NCBI GenBank assembly: GCA_963727895.1
Contig: CAVSHT010000012.1
Span: forward strand, 160,001 to 224,000
DNA: 64,000 bases
Origin: an uncultured Methanosarcinaceae archaeon
GTDB taxonomy: Archaea; Halobacteriota; Methanosarcinia; Methanosarcinales; Methanosarcinaceae
Reading direction: 5' to 3'
In this document: in pieces, positions 29,612-61,035 of the stretch
How the letters are laid out: every line of letters begins with the position of its first letter
Numbering within the stretch: the first letter of the stretch is position 1
The notes under the pieces: model-generated
Told to the model about the DNA's origin: nothing
Seen by the model: the letters and a program-made list of their open reading frames with translations, nothing else
Databases searched by the model: none
Translations under genes and position numbers: made by a program

Positions 29612-30162
29612 GGCTTTGATAATTAACTATAGTTATTTATTATGAGAACCTATATTTCTTCATGAACTGCCCCAGATGCAATAGTTCCAATCACAGATGG
29701 ATAAATAAATTTGGTCCGGAGTTAGAGGCTCTAAAAAGCGAAAATGAGATATCTATTGTTGAAATGGATGAAATGCACACTTACATCGGTAACAAAAAAA
29801 ATATTGCTGGATCTGGATTGCTGTTGATAGAGTTGGGAAAAAGTTCATCAACTGCTCTTTTGGCATCAGAGGAACAGAAACTGGAAAACTACTCTGGGAA
29901 AAATTGAAGAAAAAAGACATTGGAGAAGTGATGACAGATCACTGGAGGGCATATGCAGAGTTTCTTCCAGAAAAGATCCATACTCAATCAAAAGCAGAAA
30001 CATTTACAGTTAAGGGATATAACAGCATATTGAGGCATTTTCTAGCAAGATTGAGAAGAAAGACAAAGTGTTATACAAAAAGTCTTGAAATGCTAAAGTA
30101 CTCGGTTATTCTATTGATGAAATACAGAAATAAAGAACTAGATATGTTTAGTTAACAATACC
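29612..30162 (+). mobile_element. IS1-family element with internal deletion
   Basis: Ends GGCTTTGATAATTAA / TTAGTTAACAATACC; 8-bp target duplication TTAATTAT (29604-29611, 30163-30170); MNCPRC..MDEMHTY..(A8 shift)..WIWIAVD..TDHW..RHFLARLRRKTKC; ~190 bp shorter than the 48131 copy. Confidence 0.92.
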
Positions 30163-30530
30163 TTAATTATTTATAATATCTTCCGTTTGTTTTCTGATCT
30201 TGCATAATATTATTTTTTTTACGACTTTGTCTCATTTTATTTTTGCATAGCAACATGATACATTTCTTTTATTTATGGAACTCAATTTCCTGATTTATTA
30301 ATTTAATTTCCGTCAAGAGCAAATTGAAAATTTCCCCACAACATGATATTTTGATGATTCATGAGAAAATAGATATGGACTTCATACAGGCTAAAGAATC
30401 TGAAATTTTATTTAAAAATTTAAATATTTTTATATTGCTTAATATGTTCAAACTATATCAATACAGTCAATAAGCTTATTTTACTGTGAACATTATAGAA
30501 TTATATTAAATAATAAAGAGGAAAAAAGTA

Positions 30531-31643
30531 ATGACTCTTGAACCAGGAATTTTAGCTGGGTTTTTTATAATATTTCTTTCGGTATTGTTCGGTCCTTTTA
30601 AAGTAAGAATTATTGAGGAAAATCTGGAGATATTTCTTTTTGTTTGTGGAGTAGCAGCAATGACCATTTCTGGTTTTGTCAAACTCCCAGGTGCAGAAAC
30701 GGGTTGGAGAATGGAAATAATTAAAGAAGCATTGACTTCTCCGCTGAGTTCTTTACATATTGCTGGTATTCCAATAGGCATATTCCAGATAGTGCTGGTT
30801 GTTGGTTTAATTATCTATAAATGGCACGAACCGATTCATAAAGCAATCCGAAAAATGGCTTCAGTACTTTCCATTAAAGTTATGGCCTTTATCCTTATTG
30901 CTGTCCTTGGTCTGTTTTCCAGTGTAATGTCCGCCATTCTTGCAGCAATCATTCTCGTTGAGATGGTTAATGCACTCCCGATCTCACGAAAATCCAAGAT
31001 AAATCTAACAGTTATTGCATGTTTCTCAATAGGACTTGGCGCTGCTCTTACTCCTCTTGGAGAACCTCTTTCAACAATCGCTATCTCAAAACTCTCAGGT
31101 GGGCCTTATCATGCTGGATTCAACTTTTTAATTAATATGTTGGGTAAATATATAATTCCAGGCATCCTTGTTTATGGTATTGTTGGGATGTTCTTCCTTG
31201 GAAAAATTGAAATGAATTATTCTGATACAAAAGTTGCAGATTATAACGAGACTTTGAAAGATGTCATAATGAGAGCTGTTAAGGTTTATCTGTTTATCAT
31301 GGCTCTCACATTTCTCGGAGATGGTTTCAAACCTATTATCTTCGAATACTTCACACAGATACCTTCTGAAGTACTTTACTGGGTTAACATGGTCTCATCT
31401 ATCCTGGACAACGCTACCCTAGCAGCTGCTGAAATCGGACCTGCTATGAGTGAAATCCAGATAAAAAGTATTCTTATGGGTCTTTTAATTGCAGGTGGAA
31501 TGCTGATTCCAGGAAATATTCCGAACATCATTTCTGCAGGCAAACTGGGTATAACCAGCAAAGAATGGGCAAGACTTGGGGTACCCATGGGACTTGTCTC
31601 AATGGTTATATATTTCGTCATCATCTTTGTGCTTAAAATCTAA
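30531..31643 (+). CDS. DUF1646 family membrane protein (putative cation transporter)
   Basis: IEENLE, CFSIGLGAALTPLGEPLSTI, LDNATLAAAEI, GGMLIPGNIPNII; many TM segments. Confidence 0.85.
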   Translation: MTLEPGILAGFFIIFLSVLFGPFKVRIIEENLEIFLFVCGVAAMTISGFVKLPGAETGWRMEIIKEALTSPLSSLHIAGIPIGIFQIVLVVGLIIYKWHEPIHKAIRKMASVLSIKVMAFILIAVLGLFSSVMSAILAAIILVEMVNALPISRKSKINLTVIACFSIGLGAALTPLGEPLSTIAISKLSGGPYHAGFNFLINMLGKYIIPGILVYGIVGMFFLGKIEMNYSDTKVADYNETLKDVIMRAVKVYLFIMALTFLGDGFKPIIFEYFTQIPSEVLYWVNMVSSILDNATLAAAEIGPAMSEIQIKSILMGLLIAGGMLIPGNIPNIISAGKLGITSKEWARLGVPMGLVSMVIYFVIIFVLKI

Positions 31644-32535: not shown

Positions 32536-33648
32536 ATGGCTCTTGATTTAGGAGTTTTAATTGGATTTCTTATAGTATTCCTGGCTGTATTGCTTGGCCC
32601 TTTCAAAATACATGTTATTGAGGAAAACCTGGAAGCATTCCTGTTTGTATGTGGAGTACTTGCAATGACTCTGTCAGGTTTTGCAGTGATTCCTGGCGTA
32701 GAAACCGGATGGAGTATGGAAATAATTAAAGAAGCATTAACTGCACCGTTACATGCTGGGGAAATAGCCGGAATTCCGATCGGAATATTTCAAATAGTGT
32801 TGATTGTCGGCTTGATTATCTATAAATGGCATGCTCCAATCCATAAAGCAATCAGGAAACTGACAGATATGCTTTCAGTCCGAGTTCTGGCTTTCATTCT
32901 CATCGTTGCCCTTGGCTTATCTTCCAGTATAATGTCCGCTATTCTTGCGGCAATTATTCTCGTTGAGGTAGTTAATGCAATGCCTCTCTCACGAAAATCT
33001 AAAATAAATCTCACGATCATCGCATGTTTCTCAATCGGTCTTGGCGCTGCGCTTACCCCTCTTGGAGAACCTCTTTCAACAATCGCCATTTCAAAACTCT
33101 CTGGTGAACCTTACCATGCCGATTTCATGTTCTTGTTTAATATGCTGGGAAAATATATTTTTTCCGGAATCCTTCTATATGGTATTCTTGGAGTTTTCTT
33201 CCTCGGAAAAACAGATATAAAAGAACACGAAATGGAATCAGCAGACTATAACGAAACCATAAAAGACGTCATAATGAGGGCTGTTAAGGTTTACGTGTTT
33301 ATTGCTGCGCTAGTGTTGCTAGGAGAAGGTTTCAAGCCTATAATCTTCGAATACTTTATCCAGGTTCCTTCTGTGGCACTCTACTGGATCAATATGGTTT
33401 CCGCTGTCCTTGACAATGCTACTCTGGCAGCTGCTGAGATCGGGCCTATACTTAGTGAATTTCAGATAAAAAGTGTACTTATGGGGCTTTTAATTTCAGG
33501 AGGGATGCTAATTCCTGGAAATATCCCGAATATTATCTCTGCGAGCAAATTGGATATAACTAGCAAAGAATGGGCAAAGCTTGGATTGCCTCTAGGACTT
33601 GCTTCGATGATCCTTTACTTCCTAGAGCTATTTGTACTCGATATCTGA
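32536..33648 (+). CDS. DUF1646 family membrane protein, tandem paralog
   Basis: Same motifs and same length (370 aa) as 30531-31643; SD GGAGG. Confidence 0.85.
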   Translation: MALDLGVLIGFLIVFLAVLLGPFKIHVIEENLEAFLFVCGVLAMTLSGFAVIPGVETGWSMEIIKEALTAPLHAGEIAGIPIGIFQIVLIVGLIIYKWHAPIHKAIRKLTDMLSVRVLAFILIVALGLSSSIMSAILAAIILVEVVNAMPLSRKSKINLTIIACFSIGLGAALTPLGEPLSTIAISKLSGEPYHADFMFLFNMLGKYIFSGILLYGILGVFFLGKTDIKEHEMESADYNETIKDVIMRAVKVYVFIAALVLLGEGFKPIIFEYFIQVPSVALYWINMVSAVLDNATLAAAEIGPILSEFQIKSVLMGLLISGGMLIPGNIPNIISASKLDITSKEWAKLGLPLGLASMILYFLELFVLDI

Positions 33649-36737: not shown

Positions 36738-39700
36738 ATGGGAGAAACAATTGCAAGTAAGGAAATGCACGAATATTTTGACGAACTTGAAACAAGACTC
36801 AAAGCGGCTATAAAGATTGCAAATATAGCTCGAGCTCGTGGAAGCGACCCAAAGCCCGTTGTAGAGATTCCCCTTGCCAAGGATCTTGCTGATAGAGTTG
36901 AGAACCTTATAGGAGTAGAAGGTGTAGCTGCAAAGATCCGGGAACTCGAAGAAAAAATGTCAAGGGAAGAATCTGCTCTAGAAATAGGTCGTCAGGTTGC
37001 AGAAGGAGAAGTAGGGAACTTCCCAACAAAAAAGGATGCAGTTGAAGCTGCGATCCGGGTTTCCATGGCCGTCATTACAGAAGGGGTAGTTGCAGCTCCG
37101 ATTGAAGGAATTAATAAGGTAGAACTGGGAAAGAACGACGATGGTTCAGAGTATATCCGGATTTTTATTCCGGACCCATCCGGAGTGCAGGTGGAACAGC
37201 CCAGGCTCTTTCCGTGCTCGTTGGTGATTACGTAAGGCGTGGGATAGGGATTGACCGATATAAGCCAAGACCTGAGGAAGTAGAGCGTTATGTAGAAGAG
37301 ATCGTTCTTTACAAGAGAGTCGCAAGTTTGCAGTATATGCCTTCGGAAGATGAGATCCGTTTGATAGTCAAGAATTGTCCTGTATGTATTGATGGAGACC
37401 CAACCGAGGAAGCTGAGGTTGAAGGGCACAGAGATCTCGAAAGAATCGGAACAAATCGCATTAGAGGGGGAATGTGCCTTGTGCTTGCCGAAGGGCTTGC
37501 CCTTAAAGCTCCCAAAGTCAAGAAACACGTTAATAAGTTGAATATGGACGGATGGGACTGGCTGGATATTCTCATAGGGGGTGCAAAAACCGGAGGCGAT
37601 GAAGAGGATGATCAGAAGAACAAAATCAAGCCAAAGGATAAGTATATAAGAGATCTGATTGCAGGCAGGCCAGTTTTCTCCCATCCTTCAAGACCAGGAG
37701 GATTCAGACTCCGCTATGGACGTTCCAGAAATACTTCTTTTGCGGCTGCTGGGATCAATCCGTCTACTATGGTTTTGCTTGACGATTTTATCTCTAATGG
37801 AACTCAACTCAAGGTCGAAAGGCCTGGGAAAGCTGCAGCCATGTCTGCTGTCGATTCAATAGAAGGACCAACTGTGCGTCTTTATTCCGGAGATCTTGTC
37901 CGTGTAGACGATATAAAAGAAGCTTATGAGATTCGCTCGCAGGTCGAGGTAATAGTAGATATCGGAGAAATCCTGATCAATTATGGGGATTTTCTGGAAA
38001 ACAATCATCCTCTCATGCCTTCACCTTATGTTTTTGAATGGTGGATTTATGACTATGAAGCAGCTTGCTCTGAGAAAATACCTGAAGAAAAATTAAAAAA
38101 TCCGTCGGCAACTCTGGCTCTTAGGCTTGCGGAGGAATATGATGTACCTCTACATCCGAAGTTTACGTATCTGTGGCACGATATTAATAGAAACGAGTTT
38201 GAGGCTTTAAGGAAATTAGTGATTGAGGACGGGAGTTTTTCGGTTGAAAGTGGAATTCTTAAGCTTCCCATGAAAGTTTGTGTGGATACAGGAATCAAAC
38301 TTATACTTGAAAAACTTCTTGTACTTCACAGGGTAAAAGCTGACACAATCCTAATTGAAAAAGCTCTTCCTTTTATCTCTTGTCTTGGACTTGACTGTAA
38401 TCTTAAAGAAAAGATTAAAATGCCTGATACCGATAATATGGTAAATGCTGCATCTCTTTTAAGTGGGTTTAAAGTTCTTCCAAGGGCTCCTTCGAGGATA
38501 GGGGCTAGGATGGGAAGACCGGAAAAAGCAAACATGCGAAAGATGTCTCCTGCAGCCCAGGTTCTTTTTCCAATAGGTAATGCTGGAGGAATTACGAGGA
38601 ATCTTGTATCTGCTTCAAGTTATTCGGCTTCCATGAATGGACAAATAGGTGAAATTGAAGTGGAGATGGGAATAAGGAAATGCCTTGACTGTGGAAAAGA
38701 AACTTATTTATGGCGTTGTGACTGTGGAGGATATACTTCTCCCAAGCTCTCCTGCCCTCGTTGCAAGATTGAGGTTCAAGGTTCTGAAACTTGTCCCAAA
38801 TGCGGTAAAAAGCTAACTTCTGTTTCAAATGTCAAACTGGATTTTCGTTCCATCTACAAACAGGCCTTTGAAAACGTAGGGGAAAGGGAAAAAATGGACC
38901 TTATCAAAGGTGTAAAAAGGCTTATGAACGGGCAGATGACTCCGGAACCTTTAGAAAAGGGAATCTTGAGGGCAAAACATGGTATTTATATTTTTAAGGA
39001 TGGAACTGTCCGCTATGATATGTCAGATATCCCACTTACACATATCCGGGCTGATGAAATCGGAATAACAGCAGTTAAACTTAGGGAACTCGGTTATGTA
39101 GAAGACGTTTACGGAAATCCTCTTGAAAGAGATGATCAAGTTGTCTGCCTGAAAGTCCAGGATCTTGTGATTTCTTATGATGGTGGAGAGTATATGTTGC
39201 GTACCGCACAATACGTGGATGACCTGCTTGTGAAATATTACGGCGTTGAGCCCTACTACAATGCCAAAACAATCCAGGATCTGGTGGGTGTACTACTCAT
39301 TGGGCTTGCTCCGCACACTTCGGCAGGCGTACTAGGACGTTTAATAGGGTTTACTAAAGCTTCAGTTGGGTATGCTCATCCTTTCTTTCATGCGTCAAAA
39401 CGCAGGAATTGTGACGGAGACGAGGATTGTGTAATGCTTCTCATGGATGGAATCCTTAATTTTTCTAGATCTTATCTTCCAGATAAAAGGGGTGGAAAAA
39501 TGGATGCTCCTCTTGTGCTTACTACTAGAATTGATCCCAAGGAAGTAGACAAGGAAGCGCATAATATAGACGTGTCTGCCAGATATCCTCTGGAGTTCTA
39601 TAAGGCTACCCAGGAAATCAAAAATCCTACAGAGCTTGAAGATATTATGGATCTGGTGAGTAGCCGACTTGGGACACCGGAACAGTATGAGCATTTTATG

Positions 39701-40165
39701 TTTACACATGATACTTCTGATATTGCTGCAGGCCCTCTTAATTCTTCATATAAAACTCTAGGAAGCATGATTGAAAAAATGGAAGCTCAACTTTCACTTG
39801 CCAATAAAATAAGGGCAGTGGATGCTCCAGATGTGGCTGAAAGAGTGCTAAAGTCTCATTTTCTACCTGATCTCATGGGAAATCTCCGTTCTTTTTCAAG
39901 GCAGCGGATGCGCTGTATAAAGTGTGGAGAAAAATTCAGGCGACCTCCTCTTACAGGAGCCTGTCCTAAATGTGGAGGTAATGTAGTGCTGACTGTGCAC
40001 GAAGGAGCTGTCCGCAAATATCTTGAGATTTCAAAGGAAATTGGAGAAAGGTATGGAGTTTCCAGTTATACCCAGCAGAGAATTGAACTTCTGGATAAAG
40101 ATATATGTTCTCTATTCGAAAATCACAAAAGTAAACAAATGGGACTTTCGGAGTTTATGTCTTGA
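36738..40165 (+). CDS. polC: DNA polymerase D large subunit DP2; apparent 1-nt deletion at 37162-37166
   Basis: [12 protein letters not shown]; adding one T restores [35 protein letters not shown] catalytic motif; C-terminal Zn fingers; no intein seen. Confidence 0.95.
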
Positions 40166-40221: not shown

Positions 40222-41457
40222 TTATTCTACAGGTAGCCCAAGAGAATTAATTTGCTCTATAAGCTCAGTAAAGTTTTCAATTTCCAGTTCCAAAACTTCT
40301 TCTTTTTTCATACCTATTGACATTTCGCCGTCTACGGACAGACTTTCAGGACCTCTACGAACAAGCCTGTCAATGCCGTCTTTTTTAAGTGCTTCTTTAA
40401 CTTCCATATCATGTACAAAGGCTCTTCCAGGGATAAATACAGTCTCATTTACTTCTGAAAGGTCCAACTTCTTGAAATCTTCAATGGTAATGAGGCATCC
40501 AATGTCTTTCTTTAGAGACACGACATTTACAGAACCTCCAAGTGTTTCAAAGATTTCTCTCAGCCTTGGAGCTGCTATCTGACCTGTAATGACAGTTGCT
40601 CTTTTTGTTATTCTTGGGAGTTTTTCCAGGGCTTCTGGATCATTCCGGATAGCAAAAGGAGAACCAATTAAAGGATCTTCGAGCGGGGTTCCTGTAATCC
40701 TCATAGAAGGATGCTTTGCTGCCGAGCTGCGCACTAGCTCAGTAAATTCTTCAACAGTATGTGGAATTACGCTAGGAATGATAGGAGCATTGTTCAGGAT
40801 AAGCCCGTTTTCTTGAAAGTTTGCAAATCGCATCAGGATAGCTCCTTTTGCGCCCATATTTTCTAAGTCACTGAGGGTTCTATCGAGAGTTTCTCCGTCG
40901 TTTACTCCCGAAATGAGCACAATCGCCCCATATACATTACAATGAGCACAGAAGTCATGAAGAACCTGTAACGAAGCTTCAGGTTCCGGGTCTTTCATGT
41001 ACTCAGCTCTTAAAACCGGATCAGTTGCAAAAACTGTATAACTTACCTCTGTGACCCCATGATCTATATAGAAAGAAGCATCATCAAAATTGCTGAACCC
41101 TTTTCCGCTTGTGTATCCTAGATGTATCGGAATTTTGAACTGGGACAAGAATTCGACAAGCATTTTAAGTTCTGGATAACAGCTCAAATCGCCTCCACCA
41201 CTGATGGTGAATTTTTTTACCTCCCCACTTGAGAAATAGAGCTTTCCAGCAGTTTCCTCCAGTACTATTTGGAGCGGTTTGAAACCTGTATATGACTCTT
41301 TTACACTGCGAGTGCAGTAGTCACATCCTTTTTTGAAAGGAAGGCAATACTTACAGCCTAAGGGCTGAATTTCTTTTACTTTTTTAAAATAACAATATCT
41401 GCAAAAACCTCTGCAATCTACCCCTGGATTCCCACCTACGTCGACAGTTACTTCCAT
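40222..41457 (-). CDS. mmp10: Methanogenesis marker protein 10, radical SAM MCR arginine methyltransferase
   Basis: [10 protein letters not shown] radical SAM motif, GCKYC..GCDYC second Cys motif; divergent from mcrB. Confidence 0.93.
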
Positions 41458-41876: not shown

Positions 41877-43181
41877 GTGTCTGACACAGTAGACATCTAC
41901 GACGACAGAGGAAAACTGCTCGAGAGCAAAGTCGACATTCTGAGCCTTGCTCCAACAAGAAACGCAGCAATTAAAAAGATTATCATGGACACCAAGAGGT
42001 CTGTAGCAGTCAACCTCGCAGGTATTCAGGGTGCACTTGCCAGCGGTAAGATGGGCGGTAAGGGCCGTCAGATCTTAGGCCGTGGGCTCAACTACGATAT
42101 TGTAGGCAATGCTGATGCAATTGCAGAAAAAGTTCAAAAGCTCGTCCAGGTCGAAGAAGGCGACGATACCAACATCATCAAAGTCAAGGGCGGAAAGAGC
42201 CTCTTGATCCAGTCCCCTCAATCTAGGATAATTGCAGGTGCTGACTTCATGTCCGCAACTACAGTTGGTGCAGCAGCAGTCACCCAGACGATTCTGGACA
42301 TGTTCGGAACTGATCCTTATGATGCCCCCATCGTAAAAGCAGCTGTTTGGGGAAGCTACCCACAGACAATGGATCTCATGGGAGGCCAGGTTCAGAGTAT
42401 TCTCAGTATCCCCCAGAACAATGAAGGTCTCGGTTTCTCCCTCAGGAACATTATGGCAAACCACGTTGCAGCAATTGCCAATCGGAATGCTATGAATGCA
42501 TCAGCTCTCTCTTCCATCTACGAACAGGCTGGTATTTACGAGATGGGTGGAGCAGTCGGTATGTTCGAGAGACATCAGCTCCTCGGGCTTGCATATCAGG
42601 GTCTCAATGCCAACAATCTTTTATATGACATTGTGAAAGAAAACGGTAAGCACGGTACCATTGGAACTGTTATCGAATCCGTTGTTCACAGGGCGATTGA
42701 AGCAGGTATTATTTCCGTTGACAAGACCGCTCCTTCTGGATACAAGTTCTATAAGGCAAATGATGTTCCAAAGTGGAATGCTTGTGCAGCAGTCGGTACT
42801 CTTGCAGCTACCCTGGTTAACTGTGGTGCAGGCCGTGCAGCTCAGAACGTTTCCTCAACACTTCTTTACTTCAACGATATCCTTGAAAAGGAGACCGGTC
42901 TCCCAGGATGCGACTACGGTAAAGTAGAAGGTACCGCAGTAGGTTTCTCATTCTTCAGTCACTCCATTTATGGTGGCGGTGGGCCTGGTGTCTTCAACGG
43001 TAACCACGTTGTTACCAGACACTCCAGAGGATTCGCAATTCCCTGCGTATGTGCAGCAGTAGCTCTTGATGCAGGTACCCAGATGTTCACAATCGAATCT
43101 ACCTCAGGTCTGATTGGTGACGTGTTTGGTGGAATTAAGGAATTCCGCGAGCCGATTAAGGCAGTTGCAGGAGCTCTCTAA
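41877..43181 (+). CDS. mcrB: Methyl-coenzyme M reductase beta subunit
   Basis: MSDTVDIYDDRG; FFSHSIYGGGGPG; GTG start. Confidence 0.99.
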   Translation: MSDTVDIYDDRGKLLESKVDILSLAPTRNAAIKKIIMDTKRSVAVNLAGIQGALASGKMGGKGRQILGRGLNYDIVGNADAIAEKVQKLVQVEEGDDTNIIKVKGGKSLLIQSPQSRIIAGADFMSATTVGAAAVTQTILDMFGTDPYDAPIVKAAVWGSYPQTMDLMGGQVQSILSIPQNNEGLGFSLRNIMANHVAAIANRNAMNASALSSIYEQAGIYEMGGAVGMFERHQLLGLAYQGLNANNLLYDIVKENGKHGTIGTVIESVVHRAIEAGIISVDKTAPSGYKFYKANDVPKWNACAAVGTLAATLVNCGAGRAAQNVSSTLLYFNDILEKETGLPGCDYGKVEGTAVGFSFFSHSIYGGGGPGVFNGNHVVTRHSRGFAIPCVCAAVALDAGTQMFTIESTSGLIGDVFGGIKEFREPIKAVAGAL

Positions 43182-43204
43182 ACAATAACTTAAAAGGTCT
43201 AAAG

Positions 43205-43720
43205 ATGTCAGACTCTGCTTCAAATACTGAAGATTCTATTCAAATCGAAATTTTTCCCAGTAGAATCCTGTCCCCTGAAACAGCTCAGAAGCTTATGGCT
43301 GAAATCTACAACGTGGACGGGGTAATCCGTGCTATAGTGCAGGGCAACAGACTACCTGATAAAGTGTCTGCCGGCCCTGGTACCGGAGAAAAAGTAGAAC
43401 ATCCACTGAGAAAGCCTATTCAGATTGGAGATCAGGTTATTGAATTGAAGATCTGTGTGGGTAGGATCAGGGTTGAACTTTCAAACGCCGAAGCTAAAGA
43501 AAAGATCAGGGAAGTATGCGAAAAATTGTTCCCTTTCCCCTTTGAATTTAGGGAAGGACATTTTCTCAAAAAGAAGCCTACTGTTACTGACTATGCTAAA
43601 CTTGGTCCTGAAGCAGATCCTCGGTTACTTGGTATGGTAGATCCTAAAGCCAGTACTGATCAGCTCGTCTTTATTGAGAAACAGGAGAAGAAAGAAGAGA
43701 AAAAGGATAAAGATGAGTGA
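43205..43720 (+). CDS. mcrD: MCR operon protein D
   Basis: IEIFPSRILSPETA, KPTVTDYAKLG; position after mcrB. Confidence 0.96.
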   Translation: MSDSASNTEDSIQIEIFPSRILSPETAQKLMAEIYNVDGVIRAIVQGNRLPDKVSAGPGTGEKVEHPLRKPIQIGDQVIELKICVGRIRVELSNAEAKEKIREVCEKLFPFPFEFREGHFLKKKPTVTDYAKLGPEADPRLLGMVDPKASTDQLVFIEKQEKKEEKKDKDE

Positions 43721-43726
43721 AAAAAT

Positions 43727-44347
43727 ATGATGATAGATCGGGAAACTCAGGTAGTTGACTGCCGATGCGGTGCGGGACTTGGTAGAGGAGGAGGACTTGC
43801 TCAGCGAGGTACTCTCTCAGAGGCTGGCCGTGCTGAGGTTGTAGCTATCGCTATGAGTCCCGGCCAAAGGCATATAACAAAACCGGTGTGTGAAATCACA
43901 TACGGTATGAGGAAAGAGAATATTCAGGTCAGTGTGTTGGTGCTCTATTCTGGCTCCGGAATACCTGAATCCGGTATGAGGACCGGGTCTTTTGTACTGA
44001 GTCCGGTAGAAGTTTCACAGATTGAAATGCACAAACTGGCTGTTATTCACCTAGGAAATATCAAGGACCATGTGATTAGAAAGGCCAGGGAAATACTGAG
44101 TCAGGCTAATATTCCGGCGATTGTAGTTAGCCAGATCCCGGTAGATTTTGAGGATTTTGCAGAAGCAGGGATTAAGACGAGATTAGTGATGCCAAGGGAC
44201 GAAAATATTCGTACAAAAGGAATCGTGATGGATATGGTAAGTGGAGTTACACGTGGTGATTCCTGTCCCAGGGATAAACTAAATTTAGTCGTTAAAAATG
44301 TTAAGACTACATTAGACCAGTTAGAAGATCATCAAGGAGTTGCATGA
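43727..44347 (+). CDS. mcrC: MCR operon protein C
   Basis: VDCRCGAGLGRGGGLAQRGT, HITKPVCEIT. Confidence 0.96.
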   Translation: MMIDRETQVVDCRCGAGLGRGGGLAQRGTLSEAGRAEVVAIAMSPGQRHITKPVCEITYGMRKENIQVSVLVLYSGSGIPESGMRTGSFVLSPVEVSQIEMHKLAVIHLGNIKDHVIRKAREILSQANIPAIVVSQIPVDFEDFAEAGIKTRLVMPRDENIRTKGIVMDMVSGVTRGDSCPRDKLNLVVKNVKTTLDQLEDHQGVA

Positions 44348-44348
44348 G

Positions 44349-45095
44349 ATGAGTTACAAAAGACAATTTTATCCAGGCGCAACATCAGTTGGCGCTAACA
44401 GAAGAAAACACATGTCTGGAAAACTTGAGAAACTCAGGGAAATTTCAGACGAAGACTTAACCGCAGTTCTCGGACATCGCGCTCCAGGAAGCGACTATCC
44501 AAGCACTCACCCACCACTTGCAGAGATGGGAGAGCCTGCATGCTCGACCCGTGAGAATGTTACACCTACACCTGGTGCAGCAGCAGGAGACAGAGTAAGG
44601 TACATTCAGTTCGCTGACTCTATGTACAATGCCCCTGCCACCCCATACTTCAGATCATACTTTGCAGCAATTAACTTCAGAGGTGTAGACCCAGGTACTC
44701 TTTCCGGCCGTCAGATCGTTGAAGCCCGTGAAAGAGACATGGAACAGTGCGCAAAGGTTCAGATGGAAACCGAAATCACTGACCATGCACTCGCAGGTCT
44801 GCGTGGTGCAACTGTGCACGGTCACTCTGTCCGTCTCCAGGAAGACGGTGTGATGTTCGACATGCTCGACAGGAGAAGACTCGAAAACGGTACCATTATA
44901 ATGGACAAGGACCAGGTTGCAATTCCACTCGACAGGAAAGTAGACCTTGGCAAGCCAATGTCCAGTGAAGAAGCTGCAAAGAGAACCACAATTTACCGTG
45001 TGGACAATGTAGCCTTCAGGGGCGACGCAGAAGTCGTCGAATGGGTACACAGGATATTCGATCAGAGAACTAAATTCGGTTTCCAGCCAAAATGA
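44349..45095 (+). CDS. mcrG: Methyl-coenzyme M reductase gamma subunit
   Basis: [32 protein letters not shown]. Confidence 0.99.
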
Positions 45096-45105
45096 GGTGA
45101 CCACA

Positions 45106-46818
45106 ATGGCAGCAGACATTTTCTCAAAATTCAAAAAAGATATGGAAGTCAAGTTCGCACAGGAATTTGGTTCAAACCAGCAGACTGGTGGGGACATCAC
45201 CGGCAAGACTGAAAAATTCCTGAGGTTAGGTCCTGAGCAGGACGCAAGAAAGGTCGAAATGATTAAGGCCGGTAAGGAAATCGCAGAGAAGAGAGGCATT
45301 GCATTCTATAATCCGATGATGCACTCTGGTGCTCCCCTCGGTCAGCGTGCAATTACTCCTTACACTATTTCCGGCACTGACATTGTCGCAGAGCCTGATG
45401 ACCTTCACTATGTGAACAACGCTGCAATGCAGCAGATGTGGGATGACATCAGGAGAACCTGCGTTGTCGGTCTTGACCTCGCTCACGAGACTCTTGAGAA
45501 AAGGTTGGGTAAGGAAGTTACTCCTGAAACCATCAACCACTACCTTGAAGTCCTTAACCATGCAATGCCTGGTGCAGCAGTAGTTCAGGAAATGATGGTC
45601 GAAACTCACCCTGCTCTTGTTGACGACTGTTACGTGAAAATCTTCACAGGTGACGACACACTTGCAGATGAAATTGACAAACAATTCCTTATTGACATCA
45701 ACAAGGAATTCTCAGAAGAGCAGGCAGCTCAGATTAAAGCTTCCATCGGTAAGACAACCTGGCAGGCAATCCACATCCCAACAATTGTCTCCAGAACAAC
45801 AGATGGTGCTCAGACTACAAGGTGGGCAGCTATGCAGATCGGTATGTCTTTCATCTCCGCATACGCAATGTGCGCTGGTGAAGCAGCCGTCGCTGACCTA
45901 TCTTTTGCTGCAAAACACGCAGCTGCTGTTTCCATGGGTGAAATGCTCCCTGCAAGACGTGCACGTGGACCAAACGAGCCTGGTGGACTTTCCTTCGGTC
46001 ACCTCTCAGACATCGTCCAGACAAGTCGCACATCCGAAGACCCAGCAAAAATCGCTCTTGAAGTCGTCGGTGCAGGCTGTATGCTCTACGACCAGATCTG
46101 GCTCGGATCCTATATGTCCGGTGGTGTCGGATTCACACAGTATGCAACAGCTGCATACACCGATGATATCCTCGACAACAACGTGTACTATGACGTTGAC
46201 TACATCAACGACAAGTACAACGGTGCTGCAAATGTTGGCAAGGACAACAAGGTAAAGGCGACCCTCGACGTCGTAAAGGACATTGCAACCGAGTCCACAC
46301 TCTATGGTATCGAGACCTACGAGAAGTTCCCAACTGCTCTTGAAGACCACTTTGGTGGTTCCCAGAGAGCAACCGTGCTCGCAGCCGCAGCCGGTGTTGC
46401 AACTGCCCTCGCAACTGCAAACGCAAACGCTGGTCTTTCTGGCTGGTACCTCTCCATGTACCTGCACAAGGAAGCATGGGGCAGACTCGGATTCTTCGGA
46501 TACGACCTGCAGGACCAGTGTGGTGCTACAAATGTTCTGTCCTACCAGGGCGACGAAGGTCTCCCAGACGAACTCCGTGGTCCAAACTATCCCAACTACG
46601 CAATGAACGTCGGTCACCAGGGTGGATATGCAGGTATCGCTCAGGCAGCCCACTCAGGCCGTGGAGACGCATTCACCGTCAACCCACTCATCAAGGTCTG
46701 CTTCGCTGACGACCTCATGCCGTTCAACTTCGCTGAACCCAGGAGAGAGTTCGGTCGCGGTGCAATGAGAGAGTTCGTTCCTGCTGGTGAGAGATCTCTC
46801 GTCATTCCAGCAAAATAA
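45106..46818 (+). CDS. mcrA: Methyl-coenzyme M reductase alpha subunit
   Basis: [48 protein letters not shown]. Confidence 0.99.
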
Positions 46819-47373: not shown

Positions 47374-49101
47374 TTAGATAACGATGACTTTTTTGCCTAA
47401 TTTGCTTGCAGCTTCCACAAATTCTGTTGTATCTACATCAGGAAATGCGTCTATAATACAAATATCAAACTTTTCATCCAGTGAATTAGCTAATTTTCTT
47501 ACATCCATGCTATAAACTTCAAATTTGTCCCCAGATGCTATTAATTTTTCTTTACTTTCTGAATGTTTGACTGGAAATCCATTAGCTTCTAAATTAACCA
47601 AAGTAGTTTCTATTGCAGGATTCCATATATCATTAAAAACAACTTTTTGCGCTCCAGCTTTAAGACATGCAATTCCTAACGTTCCAGGACCACATGTACA
47701 ATCAAGAATAGTAGGTCTATCGCAATCTGCCTAAATATTTTTAAGTATTTCTGTTTTGGGTGACTCTACCTTTGGAAATTCTATATGAATTTCATGCTGA
47801 TATTTGTATATACCTAAAGCACCGTAAGGAGTCTGTATAATATCACATCTCAAATCGCAGCCGGCAAGAAGTCCATATACATGAGGATTAAAACCAGAAT
47901 CTTTTATACCCACAATTTTTCTTATATCTCCCTTTAAAACCCCTTTTACTTCCCACACTTTCTGTATAACTATATCAGCACATCTCTTATTCACCTCATT
48001 AGATAATATTACTAACGAATTCTTAGGTAAATAAGGAACAGAATTAGTTGGATAGCCAGGAGTTACAAGAGGAACACATGCATTCCTTAAATTTGCTTTT
48101 TATCTTTTACTCCTTCCTCCATCATTATTTGGCATTGGTAATAAAAAATAGATAAATATGCTTATAACATATATTTCTTCATTAACTGCCCCAGATGCAA
48201 TAGTTCCAGTCACAAAAAGAACGGTATAGTTGGCGGGCGTCAACGCTACAAATGCTCTGATTGTGGCTATAACTATACAGTAGAGCTAAAATCAACTGCT
48301 TTTTCCGCTTCTGTAAAAAGACAAGCTTTACAACTCTATCTTGAAGGATTAGGCTTTCGCTCAATAGGAAGAGTTTTAGGGGTGAGTCATGTTTCTGTCC
48401 AAAAATGGATAAAGAAATTTGGTCAGGAGTTAGAGAACCTAAAAAGTGAAAGTGAGATATCTATTGTTGAAATGGATGAGATGCACACTTACATCGGTAA
48501 CAAAAAAAATATTGCTGGATCTGGATTGCTGTTGATAGAGTTGGGAAAAAGTTCATCAACTGCTCTTTTGGCAGCAGAGGAACGGAAACTGGAAAACTAC
48601 TCTGGGAAAAATTGAAGAAAAAAGAGATTGGAGAAGTGATGACAGATCACTGGAGGGCATATGCAGAGTTTCTTCCTGAAAAGAGTCATACTCAATCCAA
48701 AGCAAAAACGTATACTGTTGAAGGATATAACAGCATATTGAGGCATTTCCTGGCAAGGTTGAGAAGAAAGACAAAGTGTTATAAAAAAAGTCTTGAAATG
48801 CTAAAGTACTCGGTTATTCTATTGATGAAATACAGAAATAAAGAACTAGATATATTTAATTAACAATACCATATATTTTTAGCACATGAGCTATTACAGT
48901 ATCAAGATGTCTCTTACCGCAGTTACAACTGCCAAAATGGTTATCCATTTCATCTAAATTAATCTGTTCTGCTAGAGGAAATAATTTCCTTATTTTTTGT
49001 GGTTTGCAATCGTTGCACGGTTTGTAAAATAATTCAATGTTTCTTAACGCTTCCGAAATAGGCTTTATGCACGCATTTCCACATCTACATTTTATTTCCA
49101 T
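47374..49101 (-). pseudogene. mcmA: Class I SAM-dependent methyltransferase adjacent to mcrA (probable McmA, MCR cysteine methylase), disrupted
   Basis: Reconstructed ~325 codons: MEIKCRCG..CGKRHLD..VLKI | IS1 | MMEEG..(1-nt loss 48097-48101)..LAGCDLRCD..HIEFPK..(TAG 47731-47733)..ILDCTCGPGTLG..FNDIW..IDAFP; gene name from recalled synteny mcrA-mcmA-aroA-thyA. Confidence 0.8.
48131..48870 (+). mobile_element. IS1-family element, full length, transposase start mutated to ATT
   Basis: Ends GGCATTGGTAAT / ATTAACAATACC; 48181 ATT-NCPRC..RQRYKCSDC Zn ribbon, HTH, A8 shift at 48502-48509, DDE domain; target duplication degenerate. Confidence 0.93.
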
Positions 49102-59870: not shown

Positions 59871-60085
59871 GGCTTTGCTAATTAACTATAGTTATTTATT
59901 ATGAGAACCTCTATTTCTGCATGGACTGCCCAAGATGTAAGAGTAACACTCACAATCAGAGCATTTGTAGCGTTGACGACCACCAACTATACCATTCTTT
60001 TTGTGACTGGAACTATTGCATCTTGGGCAGTCCATGCAGAAATAGAGGTTCTCATAATAAATAACTATAGTTAATTAGCAATGCC
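59871..60085. mobile_element. Fold-back mini-element built from two inverted IS1 left ends
   Basis: 67-bp arms (59871-59937, 60019-60085) complementary at 66/67 positions and matching the IS1 left end at 29612; each arm carries an MDCPRC start. Confidence 0.88.
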
Positions 60086-61035
60086 TAATTTTGAGACTTT
60101 TTATTATTTTCTGGTCTTGTATTGATTGCAGTCAATTGCTAGTGAAATTAATGATAAATTTTGGCAATCCCAGAAGATATTAAAAAGTCTCCGAATTTTC
60201 CAATAAAACTCTTTTCTTTTTTTATTAAGATTTCTTTTGAGTCGGATTATACTCTTTTCCAGAGCATCAAATTTCTTTTTGTAATCGGGACTGCAAAAAT
60301 AATAGTTCTTTTTCCAGTAATCCGAAAAATATTCAATATTCTTATATATTATTTTCTTGCAAATAGAATCCGGTGGCATTAAAAACAAACTTCCTTAAAT
60401 TACATAAAAACTCCAGGACATTCCATAAACAGCGTCACTTCCACATGAATTTGATTTTAATCTATGGGTTTAATCTTTAGCTCGTAAGTTAAAAGTTACT
60501 ATTAAAAAATGTTTATTATACAAATAGTCATATATTTATTTCACTTATCATTTTCTTATTGTATTCTATTGTTAAGGATTTTTTAGATCTTACGTGAAAT
60601 AATTATAAAGCTAAATTCACTATCAACTAAGTTCAAAGAGGTTTACACAAAAAGGGAGATAAACAGTAATGGTCTTCTTGATCTCTTTCTTCTTGATCTC
60701 TTAATTCTTATAAGATAATTATTAAACTGATAAATTAAAAATTGATGAATTACTACTCCATTTAAAGTAATTTAGCAAAAGTTATTATACACTTTGAGGA
60801 ATACCTCTTTTAAACTTTTGATAATCAATTCATGTGATATTTTTGTAAATTTGGAAAAGTACTGCTTTTTCAGAATACTCTGATGTTTAAGTGTTGCCTC
60901 TTACTATTAAACATAAAATTTGTCTAACTCACTAATTGTATTTGAATCTCTTAAATAAGTCAGCATTGCTTAGATTAAACTTGCACAATTTATCCTTAAT
61001 TGCCTTATTCACAGGTTTTTAGGAAGGAATTAAAA

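Follow-up and report, generated by a model that had tools for sequence, protein, structure and literature searches.

An IS1-family insertion interrupts the mcmA gene beside an intact mcr operon in an uncultured Methanosarcina

The 64,000-nucleotide window analysed here (positions 160,001 to 224,000 of contig CAVSHT010000012.1, from an uncultured Methanosarcinaceae archaeon) holds the operon for methyl-coenzyme M reductase (MCR) and, convergent with mcrA, the remnant of a methyltransferase gene that we assign to mcmA. S-methylcysteine is an unusual modified residue at the active site of MCR, and its role is unsettled. The findings presented here show that mcmA is interrupted by an IS1-family insertion sequence (IS) and that the locus is a pseudogene of the McmA family, not a working member. 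Probably, mcmA is a young pseudogene in the organism that the assembly represents, the MCR of this organism would lack S-methylcysteine, and the loss would have been nearly neutral.

The broken mcmA gene and the transposon within it

The remnant occupies 47374-49101 on the minus strand. In order to place its codons, we translated the three minus frames and aligned them to six orthologs of 326 amino acids (aa). An earlier note on this DNA, made from the letters alone, had joined three short minus-strand open reading frames (ORFs) into one methyltransferase gene of about 325 codons; this reconstruction held, with all elements at the positions given there, and the precise figure is 326. The three minus-strand ORFs are an N piece (48856..49101, 81 aa), a middle piece (47731..47994, 87 aa; 122 aa from stop to stop, 47731..48099) and a C piece (47374..47601, 75 aa from a TTG; the homologous stretch, 47377-47730, is 118 aa). 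Together they cover codons 1-76, 77-85, 87-207 and 209-326, so that all codons were placed, 324 of them readable and two of them (86 and 208) breaks. Codons 1-76 (48874..49101) form the Cys-rich N-terminal module and are 95% identical to residues 1-76 of the nearest intact ortholog, P0002. Their frame continues into the IS until a TAA at 48856-48858, which produces the 81-aa ORF. Public sources list this N fragment reading into the IS (48856-49101) as a separate protein, P0121, from a 449,254-base contig. Beyond the 740-bp insert, codons 77-85 (MMEEGVKDK, 48099..48125) resume the frame of the N piece. The frame then changes at codon 86, where a run of five A (A5, 48097..48101 on the minus strand) is one nucleotide short and may be an assembly error; among the 29 intact orthologs read, 25 have A6, two have a longer run and two have A5 in another codon context. 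Codons 87-207 were assigned to 47734..48096 by ortholog alignment. Codon 208 is TAG (47731..47733) instead of TTG, whereas all 29 intact orthologs encode Leu at this position (TTG in 23, TTA in five and CTA in one). The genus Methanosarcina decodes TAG as pyrrolysine; given Leu in all 29 orthologs read, an intact mcmA whose TAG is read in this way was rejected. Codons 209-326 (47377-47730, or 47374..47730 with the stop) contain the class I S-adenosylmethionine (SAM) methyltransferase core with its motif I, upstream of which the TAG is located. Both motif I (LDCTCGPGTLG) and the Cys-rich N-terminus, which had been noticed earlier, are present. The gene has no single uninterrupted reading frame, being cut by the IS between codons 76 and 77, the frame change at codon 86 and the TAG at codon 208.

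The IS1 insertion proposed in the earlier note was borne out and its ends could be set exactly. The element is 740 bp long (48131..48870, plus strand) and is bounded by imperfect terminal inverted repeats (48131-48155 and 48846-48870) that match at 18 of 25 positions. It carries two plus-strand frames, ORF A (48181-48615), with a zinc ribbon and a helix-turn-helix (HTH) region and an ATT start, and ORF B (48501-48863), with the DDE domain. ORF B matched the Pfam family DDE_Tnp_IS1 (PF03400) with an E-value of 2.6e-16 and 60.6 bits (cut-off 24.1). In ORF A, HTH_23 scored above its cut-off, and Zn_ribbon_InsA gave a weak match of 19.7 bits against a cut-off of 26.1. A slippery run of eight A (A8, 48503-48510, plus strand) lies between the two frames and is retained in 111 of the 161 full-length copies of the element, indicating that the two-frame layout is the normal state of this IS family, as in IS1; the frameshift at the run would be a programmed one. 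A blastn search of the genome returned 281 matches to the element, of which the 161 full-length copies could be aligned with their flanks; the mean pairwise identity among copies was 93.4%. In common with the IS1 family, the element has the DDE_Tnp_IS1 domain, a zinc ribbon with an HTH at the N-terminus, two frames that overlap at an A run, short inverted repeats at its ends, a target duplication of 8 bp and a length of about 0.74 kb. What sets it apart is that it makes up about 4.8% of the genome (177,003 of 3,668,200 bases of IS-homologous DNA, or 4.83%), and a first-look candidate count, which is a rough measure, gave 325 in this genome versus 25-97 in 58 relatives. Related elements in other genomes of the genus showed 82-93% identity. 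Inside the window, further IS fragments were found at 29697-30173 and 59951-60089.

The target duplication of this family is 8 bp and is perfect in 56 of the 161 copies. At mcmA, the flanking 8-mers, both given on the plus strand, are CATTATTT on the 3′ (M) side of the gene (48123..48130), which equals the empty-site sequence, and ATATATTT on the N side (48871..48878). They agree at five of eight positions; the other three, which differ, directly adjoin the IS end. The insert in mcmA is a genuine transposition, since its flanks are the two halves of one gene and the empty-site sequences described below skip 748 bases, that is, the 740 bp of the element plus the 8 bp that the family duplicates.

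The identity of the gene was examined with a 241-residue part of the remnant as query, with X at the TAG and a cut-off of E ≤ 0.001. The query matched 315 proteins; nearly all of the best 120 were 321-346 aa long, and the named proteins among these 120 came from Methanosarcina. Intact orthologs matched the remnant at E = 1e-146. The nearest of them, P0002, was 91% identical to the 241-residue part and 92.9% identical across the whole gene. P0045 (AAM07884.1, Q8THH2), which is MA4545 of M. acetivorans, was 80% identical to the query. The account of Nayak et al. 2020 (PMC7058361) names MA4545 as McmA, places it adjoining the mcr operon and opposite MA4551, and reports that its deletion rendered the McrA peptide 14 Da lighter at Cys472 through loss of the methyl group. 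The gene order in the window, mmp10 - mcrBDCGA - mcmA, matches the layout described in that paper. In addition to the 80% identity over 241 residues, the gene shares with MA4545 its 326 codons, its place beside mcrA, the Cys-rich N-terminus and the class I SAM methyltransferase motif I. Unlike MA4545, it is cut by the IS, the TAG and the one-nucleotide deficit and yields no full-length product. The C piece matched Pfam PrmA above the cut-off (E = 4.7e-7), with Methyltransf_25 (1.1e-5) and MTS just below theirs, and the N piece retains C5, C7, C11, C29, C32, C59 and C61, which are invariant in 13 homologs. A profile that included P0045 matched this genome only at the mcmA locus, and relative genomes had, as a rule, one mcmA match each. 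Both the sequence likeness and the position beside mcrA make it well supported that the broken gene is the ortholog of McmA, the SAM-dependent methyltransferase that forms the S-methylcysteine of McrA, in agreement with the comparison to M. acetivorans drawn in the earlier note.

The empty site, the age of the insertion and the predicted enzyme

To look for the uninterrupted gene in nature, metagenome contigs from the four best DNA runs, X1-X4 (soil, wetland, soil and bioreactor), were compared with the locus at 90% likeness. One contig each in X1, X3 and X4 joined position 48125 to 48874, skipping 748 bases, and X2 had no cover at the insertion site. The same empty-site contigs presented one extra base behind 48096, which restored A6. 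The X3 contig (573 letters) differed from the window at only two of 327 letters on the N side, and at 10 of 209 letters plus the one gap on the other side. Given the near identity on the N side, these contigs represent an IS-free, in-frame allele of a very close relative that is present in at least three samples. The depth without the extra base at 48096 was 28.5 of 43.1 in X1 and 60 of 76.4 in X4, which concerns the A-run state only and says nothing of the IS. Since this remaining depth matches the state of the window, it hints that A5 is real and not solely an assembly error. The IS depth in these runs was tens of times the flank depth, the depths being summed over organisms.

These contigs bear directly on whether the knockout is a minority or strain-level variant, in which case mcmA would be intact and MCR fully modified in most cells of the species, perhaps in the source sample too, and the assembler would by chance have followed the IS haplotype. 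The empty site with its frame-restoring base in X1, X3 and X4, and the closeness of the X3 contig, speak in favour of such a variant. However, the contigs give presence, not proportions, and the A5 depths in X1 and X4 indicate that a broken-frame allele also occurs in nature. The question raised in the earlier note, whether reads would show the IS to be absent in most of the population, can be answered to the extent that the empty site exists in three of the four metagenomes; the proportions are not given by contigs. On balance, we consider a minority variant unlikely and the broken allele would be the main one in its population.

The insertion had been regarded as old in the earlier note, on the grounds that the element had lost its ATG and that its target duplication was degenerate. 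Both features are real (ATT at 48181-48183, where the family consensus reads ATG, and the match at five of eight positions), but neither dates the insertion. ATT is common to 37 of the 161 copies, with ATG in 119, and therefore is no dating evidence; most likely, the ATT start was inherited from the source copy and is a subfamily trait. Because the three target-site mismatches sit side by side against the IS end, a single event or a local error seems a better account of them than slow decay. Regarding the divergence of the element, this copy differed from the consensus at 33 of 740 positions (family median 37) and its nearest sibling was 96.1% identical (family median 96.5%); 22 of the 161 copies had a sibling at least 99% identical. 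As for the gene, the 324 readable codons contained no further stops beyond the TAG and the frame break. A protein relative-rate count, used in place of dN/dS with the P0002 DNA absent from the metagenome contig scan (best locus 83% identical), gave 14 derived residue changes in the remnant versus nine in the nearest intact sister (binomial p = 0.40). At the 99 columns that are invariant in 54 intact orthologs, the remnant carried two changes (leave-one-out mean 0.69, maximum 4), and at columns conserved at 95% or more it carried eight (intact-ortholog mean 2.96, maximum 12). The excess divergence of the remnant protein is at most mild, and not significant.

An old, fixed loss, with an ancient insertion followed by decay of the gene, would draw on the imperfect duplication, the ATT, the nearest sibling at only 96.1% and the eight changes at conserved columns. 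Against it, the ATT is shared with many copies, the sibling identity is typical of the family, the target-site mismatches are confined to the IS end, as many as 12 changes at the conserved columns occur in an intact ortholog, and neither further stops nor a significant excess of changes was found. Moreover, identity to the empty-site allele is 99.4% on the N side and the gene is intact in G001, the sister genome on the PolD tree described below. We judge an old loss improbable. Taken together, the lack of further stops, the lack of significant extra divergence and the empty-site alleles in three of the four metagenomes make the insertion look young and polymorphic rather than old, contrary to what had been proposed.

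The remaining genes for MCR and its modification are open. mcrB, mcrD, mcrC, mcrG and mcrA (41877..46818, plus strand) are all open, McrA has a single match in the genome, and its target Cys codon is TGT at 46519-46521. mmp10/mamA (40225..41457, minus strand), for the radical SAM arginine methylase, is also open and aligned over 411 of 411 residues without stops, with 88% identity to G052; the earlier statement that mmp10 and the target Cys codon are intact was thus correct. Contig C9 carries ycaO (430 aa) and tfuA (224 aa), both with open frames. A second mcmA copy, whose search had been suggested in the earlier note, was not found in the assembly, which is rated 84% complete: the three pieces, used as tblastn queries, matched the locus only (next best E = 0.065), and the 13-homolog profile matched only the two known places. 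As M. acetivorans lacking mcmA retained the other McrA modifications (PMC7058361), the MCR of this organism is predicted to carry methyl-arginine and thioglycine together with an unmethylated Cys475. The engineered ΔmcmA strain described in that paper has the same outcome as the one predicted here, an MCR without S-methylcysteine but with its other modifications, in viable cells; it was, however, made in a laboratory strain by clean Cas9 deletion and its phenotypes have been measured, whereas the present case is a natural transposon insertion in a barkeri-group relative known from sequence. The natural loss of S-methylcysteine claimed in the earlier note is probably right for the assembled haplotype; that this allele is the main one in its population, like the missing modification itself, is inferred. 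It is very improbable that methylation of the Cys persists, whether through a different enzyme or through a remnant product that restarts at Met77 with the TAG read as pyrrolysine: the Met77-Met78 pair lies directly after the IS, the genus reads TAG in this way and two mttB genes have one in-frame TAG each, but a protein of this sort would be missing its first 76 residues and the seven invariant Cys among them, would require the frameshift to be an error and would place pyrrolysine where every ortholog read has Leu, pylS is split in this assembly, and the assembly contains no mcmA paralog. In M. acetivorans, the loss of mcmA alone is reported to abolish the modification (PMC7058361).

The persistence of the insertion is consistent with a low cost. 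IS copies were located in ORFs of at least 150 codons (with the site closed) in six of 69 clean-flank cases, versus 1032 of 2000 random sites (52%); the mcmA copy entered this tally through wrongly set coordinates, and its frameshift would exclude it under the strict criterion. Since IS copies avoid genes, a persistent intragenic copy points to a gene whose loss costs little. This fits the phenotypes published for ΔmcmA M. acetivorans (PMC7058361), which was viable on all substrates tested, 30% slower on dimethyl sulfide (DMS), 12% lower in yield on trimethylamine (TMA), 20% faster than its parent at 42 °C and faster at 29 °C too. In addition, no polar effect is expected because mcmA is convergent with mcrA and is the last gene on its strand. 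We propose that an IS1-family element transposed into codon 76/77 and would thereby have severed the Cys-rich N module from the methyltransferase core, and that the TTG to TAG change upstream of motif I, and possibly the one-nucleotide loss, added to the damage. With no other copy, the intact mcrBDCGA, mmp10 and ycaO-tfuA genes would then produce the enzyme predicted above, with a bare Cys475. The loss would have been neutral or nearly so, one casualty of a large IS expansion in a dispensable and repeatedly lost gene.

Assembly quality and other damaged genes

How far the smaller lesions can be trusted depends on the assembly. We sampled twenty 20-kb stretches of the complete relative G004, which contained 159 ORFs of at least 250 aa, 93 of them with a close ortholog (at least 75% identity) in the present genome. 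Among these 93 orthologs, 75 aligned in one piece covering at least 90% of the ORF, two were partial and 16 aligned in several pieces, the latter consisting of two tandem paralogs and 14 frame changes. The frame changes were mostly single extra bases outside long homopolymers. An indel-context tally against G004 at the nucleotide level was swamped by gaps in diverged intergenic DNA. In the window itself, polD, for the large subunit DP2 (36738-40165), is split into frames of 165 and 983 aa by a one-nucleotide deficit in a T run (T5 at 37163-37167; T6 in G052 and TTTTCT in G005). The polD open frame is 1146-1193 aa in 50 of 50 relatives with a full-length match and 1015 aa here, and the break reflects either an error of assembly or, in an essential gene, a split that is tolerated. 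In the only close leuS (G000:C11:134115-136970, G000 being this genome), three +1 shifts fall within about 525 bases before the frame is restored; a local stretch of poor consensus is the most likely cause. Frameshifts in two genes that are expected to be essential, polD and leuS, favour sequence errors. Also in the window, two tandem paralogs of 370 aa (30531-31643 and 32536-33648), about 74% alike by cross-matches, are kept in G052 and G004.

Other damage has a different appearance. Four genes of the fpo operon (G000:C5:127582-134022) are damaged relative to G004: fpoL has lost 94 codons and has a frame change, fpoH has a nonsense codon, fpoD aligns only up to residue 316 of 374 and another antiporter-like fpo subunit changes frame twice. 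The operon thus appears to be undergoing real pseudogenisation. Four genes of the amt/nif region are also damaged, and there too the damage looks real. In pylS (G000:C12:42192-42909), one extra base that is not part of a long homopolymer splits the gene, and the two mttB genes are open, each with one in-frame TAG (C3:324764-326182 and C9:389506-390924). A relaxation of mcmA through lost methylotrophy was also considered and was not supported: pylS and fpo are damaged, yet the two mttB copies and one mtaB copy are open.

The earlier note had described mcmA as broken three ways. The one-nucleotide loss at 48097-48101 and the TAG at 47731-47733 are both present in the assembly, but with so many conserved genes frameshifted they are not independently trustworthy; errors and true pseudogenes are not separable without reads. 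The IS insertion alone is robust; the other two lesions, in the A run and at codon 208, are no more than plausible. Several points weigh against a young pseudogene with an unmodified MCR. At 84% completeness, a copy of mcmA in unassembled DNA is possible. The frame changes in 14 of the 93 sampled genes mark the assembly as error-prone or the genome as decayed. The empty site with A6 occurs in three of the four metagenomes compared, and no public run contained half of the sampled words. Furthermore, an unrelated methyltransferase could methylate the Cys, and the Cys is retained in all nine mcmA-less genomes described below, so that its conservation is uninformative either way. Even with these points, the young and nearly neutral loss of mcmA stands as the probable explanation.

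The same damage could have a wider meaning. Tentatively, the mcmA knockout may be one sign that the genome of a free-living Methanosarcina lineage is truly eroding, accompanied by an IS1 burst of about 5% of the genome. As a whole, we find this reading possible but doubtful; under it, the four fpo genes, the amt/nif-region genes, pylS and mcmA would be the true pseudogenes. Were it true, weakly selected functions such as MCR fine-tuning would be shed, and the same shedding would have removed mcmA at least five times in the genus.

Loss of mcmA across Methanosarcina

A survey of mcmA status across Methanosarcina genomes, which the earlier note had called for, showed that the loss extends well beyond this genome. 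With P0002 as query, 45 of 59 genus genomes (this one included) had a match and 14 had none. mcrA was found in 10 of the 14, and in nine of them we inspected the 8.5-10.6 kb beside mcrA; the tenth, G055, was omitted because its mcrA is split and partial. In the nine genomes (G061, G062, G042, G049, G050, G054, G064, G067 and G018, with completeness values of 99, 98, 99, 99, 99, 90, 92, 80 and 92, respectively), no McmA was found beside mcrA, nor did the McmA profile match anywhere in them, with G000 as positive control. In G061 (C1, a single complete contig), G062 (C52) and G042 (C74), mcrA is followed after about 500 bp by aroA, a thyA-like gene and htpX, as after mcmA in the window, which marks a clean deletion at these three loci. 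The emptied locus holds an ABC transporter cluster in G054 and a pilin-like ORF in G049, and no IS remnants were seen at the emptied locus of other species. Elsewhere in the genus, G019 has a split mcmA match and a split mcrA too and is probably error-prone, and in G010 (C100:168-1295) the mcmA match falls into two parts of a single open frame of 388 aa, where residues 119 and 144 are set apart by about 150 extra bases, a possible in-frame insertion. In G057, the mcrA match (C20:47906-49618) contains a single in-frame TAG and is followed, about 1.7 kb downstream, by two additional short McrA-like fragments (C20:51284-51553).

The distribution was placed on a quick maximum-likelihood tree of one gene, PolD, with 53 rows (six genomes with missing or partial PolD were omitted) and a midpoint root. 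On this tree, the absence of mcmA needs seven changes, at least five of them forced by well-supported branches, a count that is approximate. This genome is sister to G001. G062, which lacks mcmA, and G066, which has it, presented almost identical PolD, indicating that presence and absence differ between very close relatives. Outside Methanosarcina, the account in PMC7058361 lists Methanocaldococcus jannaschii, Methanopyrus kandleri, Methanococcoides burtonii, Methanogenium frigidum and Methanomassiliicoccus as methanogens naturally without McmA. The present organism shares with them the absence of the modifier with MCR kept; they are whole lineages without a gene remnant, whereas here the remnant is nearly complete and the loss falls within Methanosarcina. 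A full-text search of the literature, supplements not included, found no report of mcmA loss within Methanosarcina or of an IS in mcmA.

The absence of mcmA from nine other good Methanosarcina genomes makes its disruption in this one less surprising. A dispensable modifier has been lost in an ordinary way; the event is a new example of a familiar kind, and as a single case it adds little, given that the dispensability and patchy distribution of mcmA were already known and that assembly quality limits what can be drawn from the point lesions. The genus-wide pattern of loss and the state of this genome are more useful leads. If the loss is true, a natural McmA-less strain and its near-identical empty-site allele would constitute a counterpart to the laboratory deletion. 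The nine species genomes without mcmA would likewise be natural counterparts, and with all of these it would become possible to test whether the modification has a role in the temperature or substrate niche.

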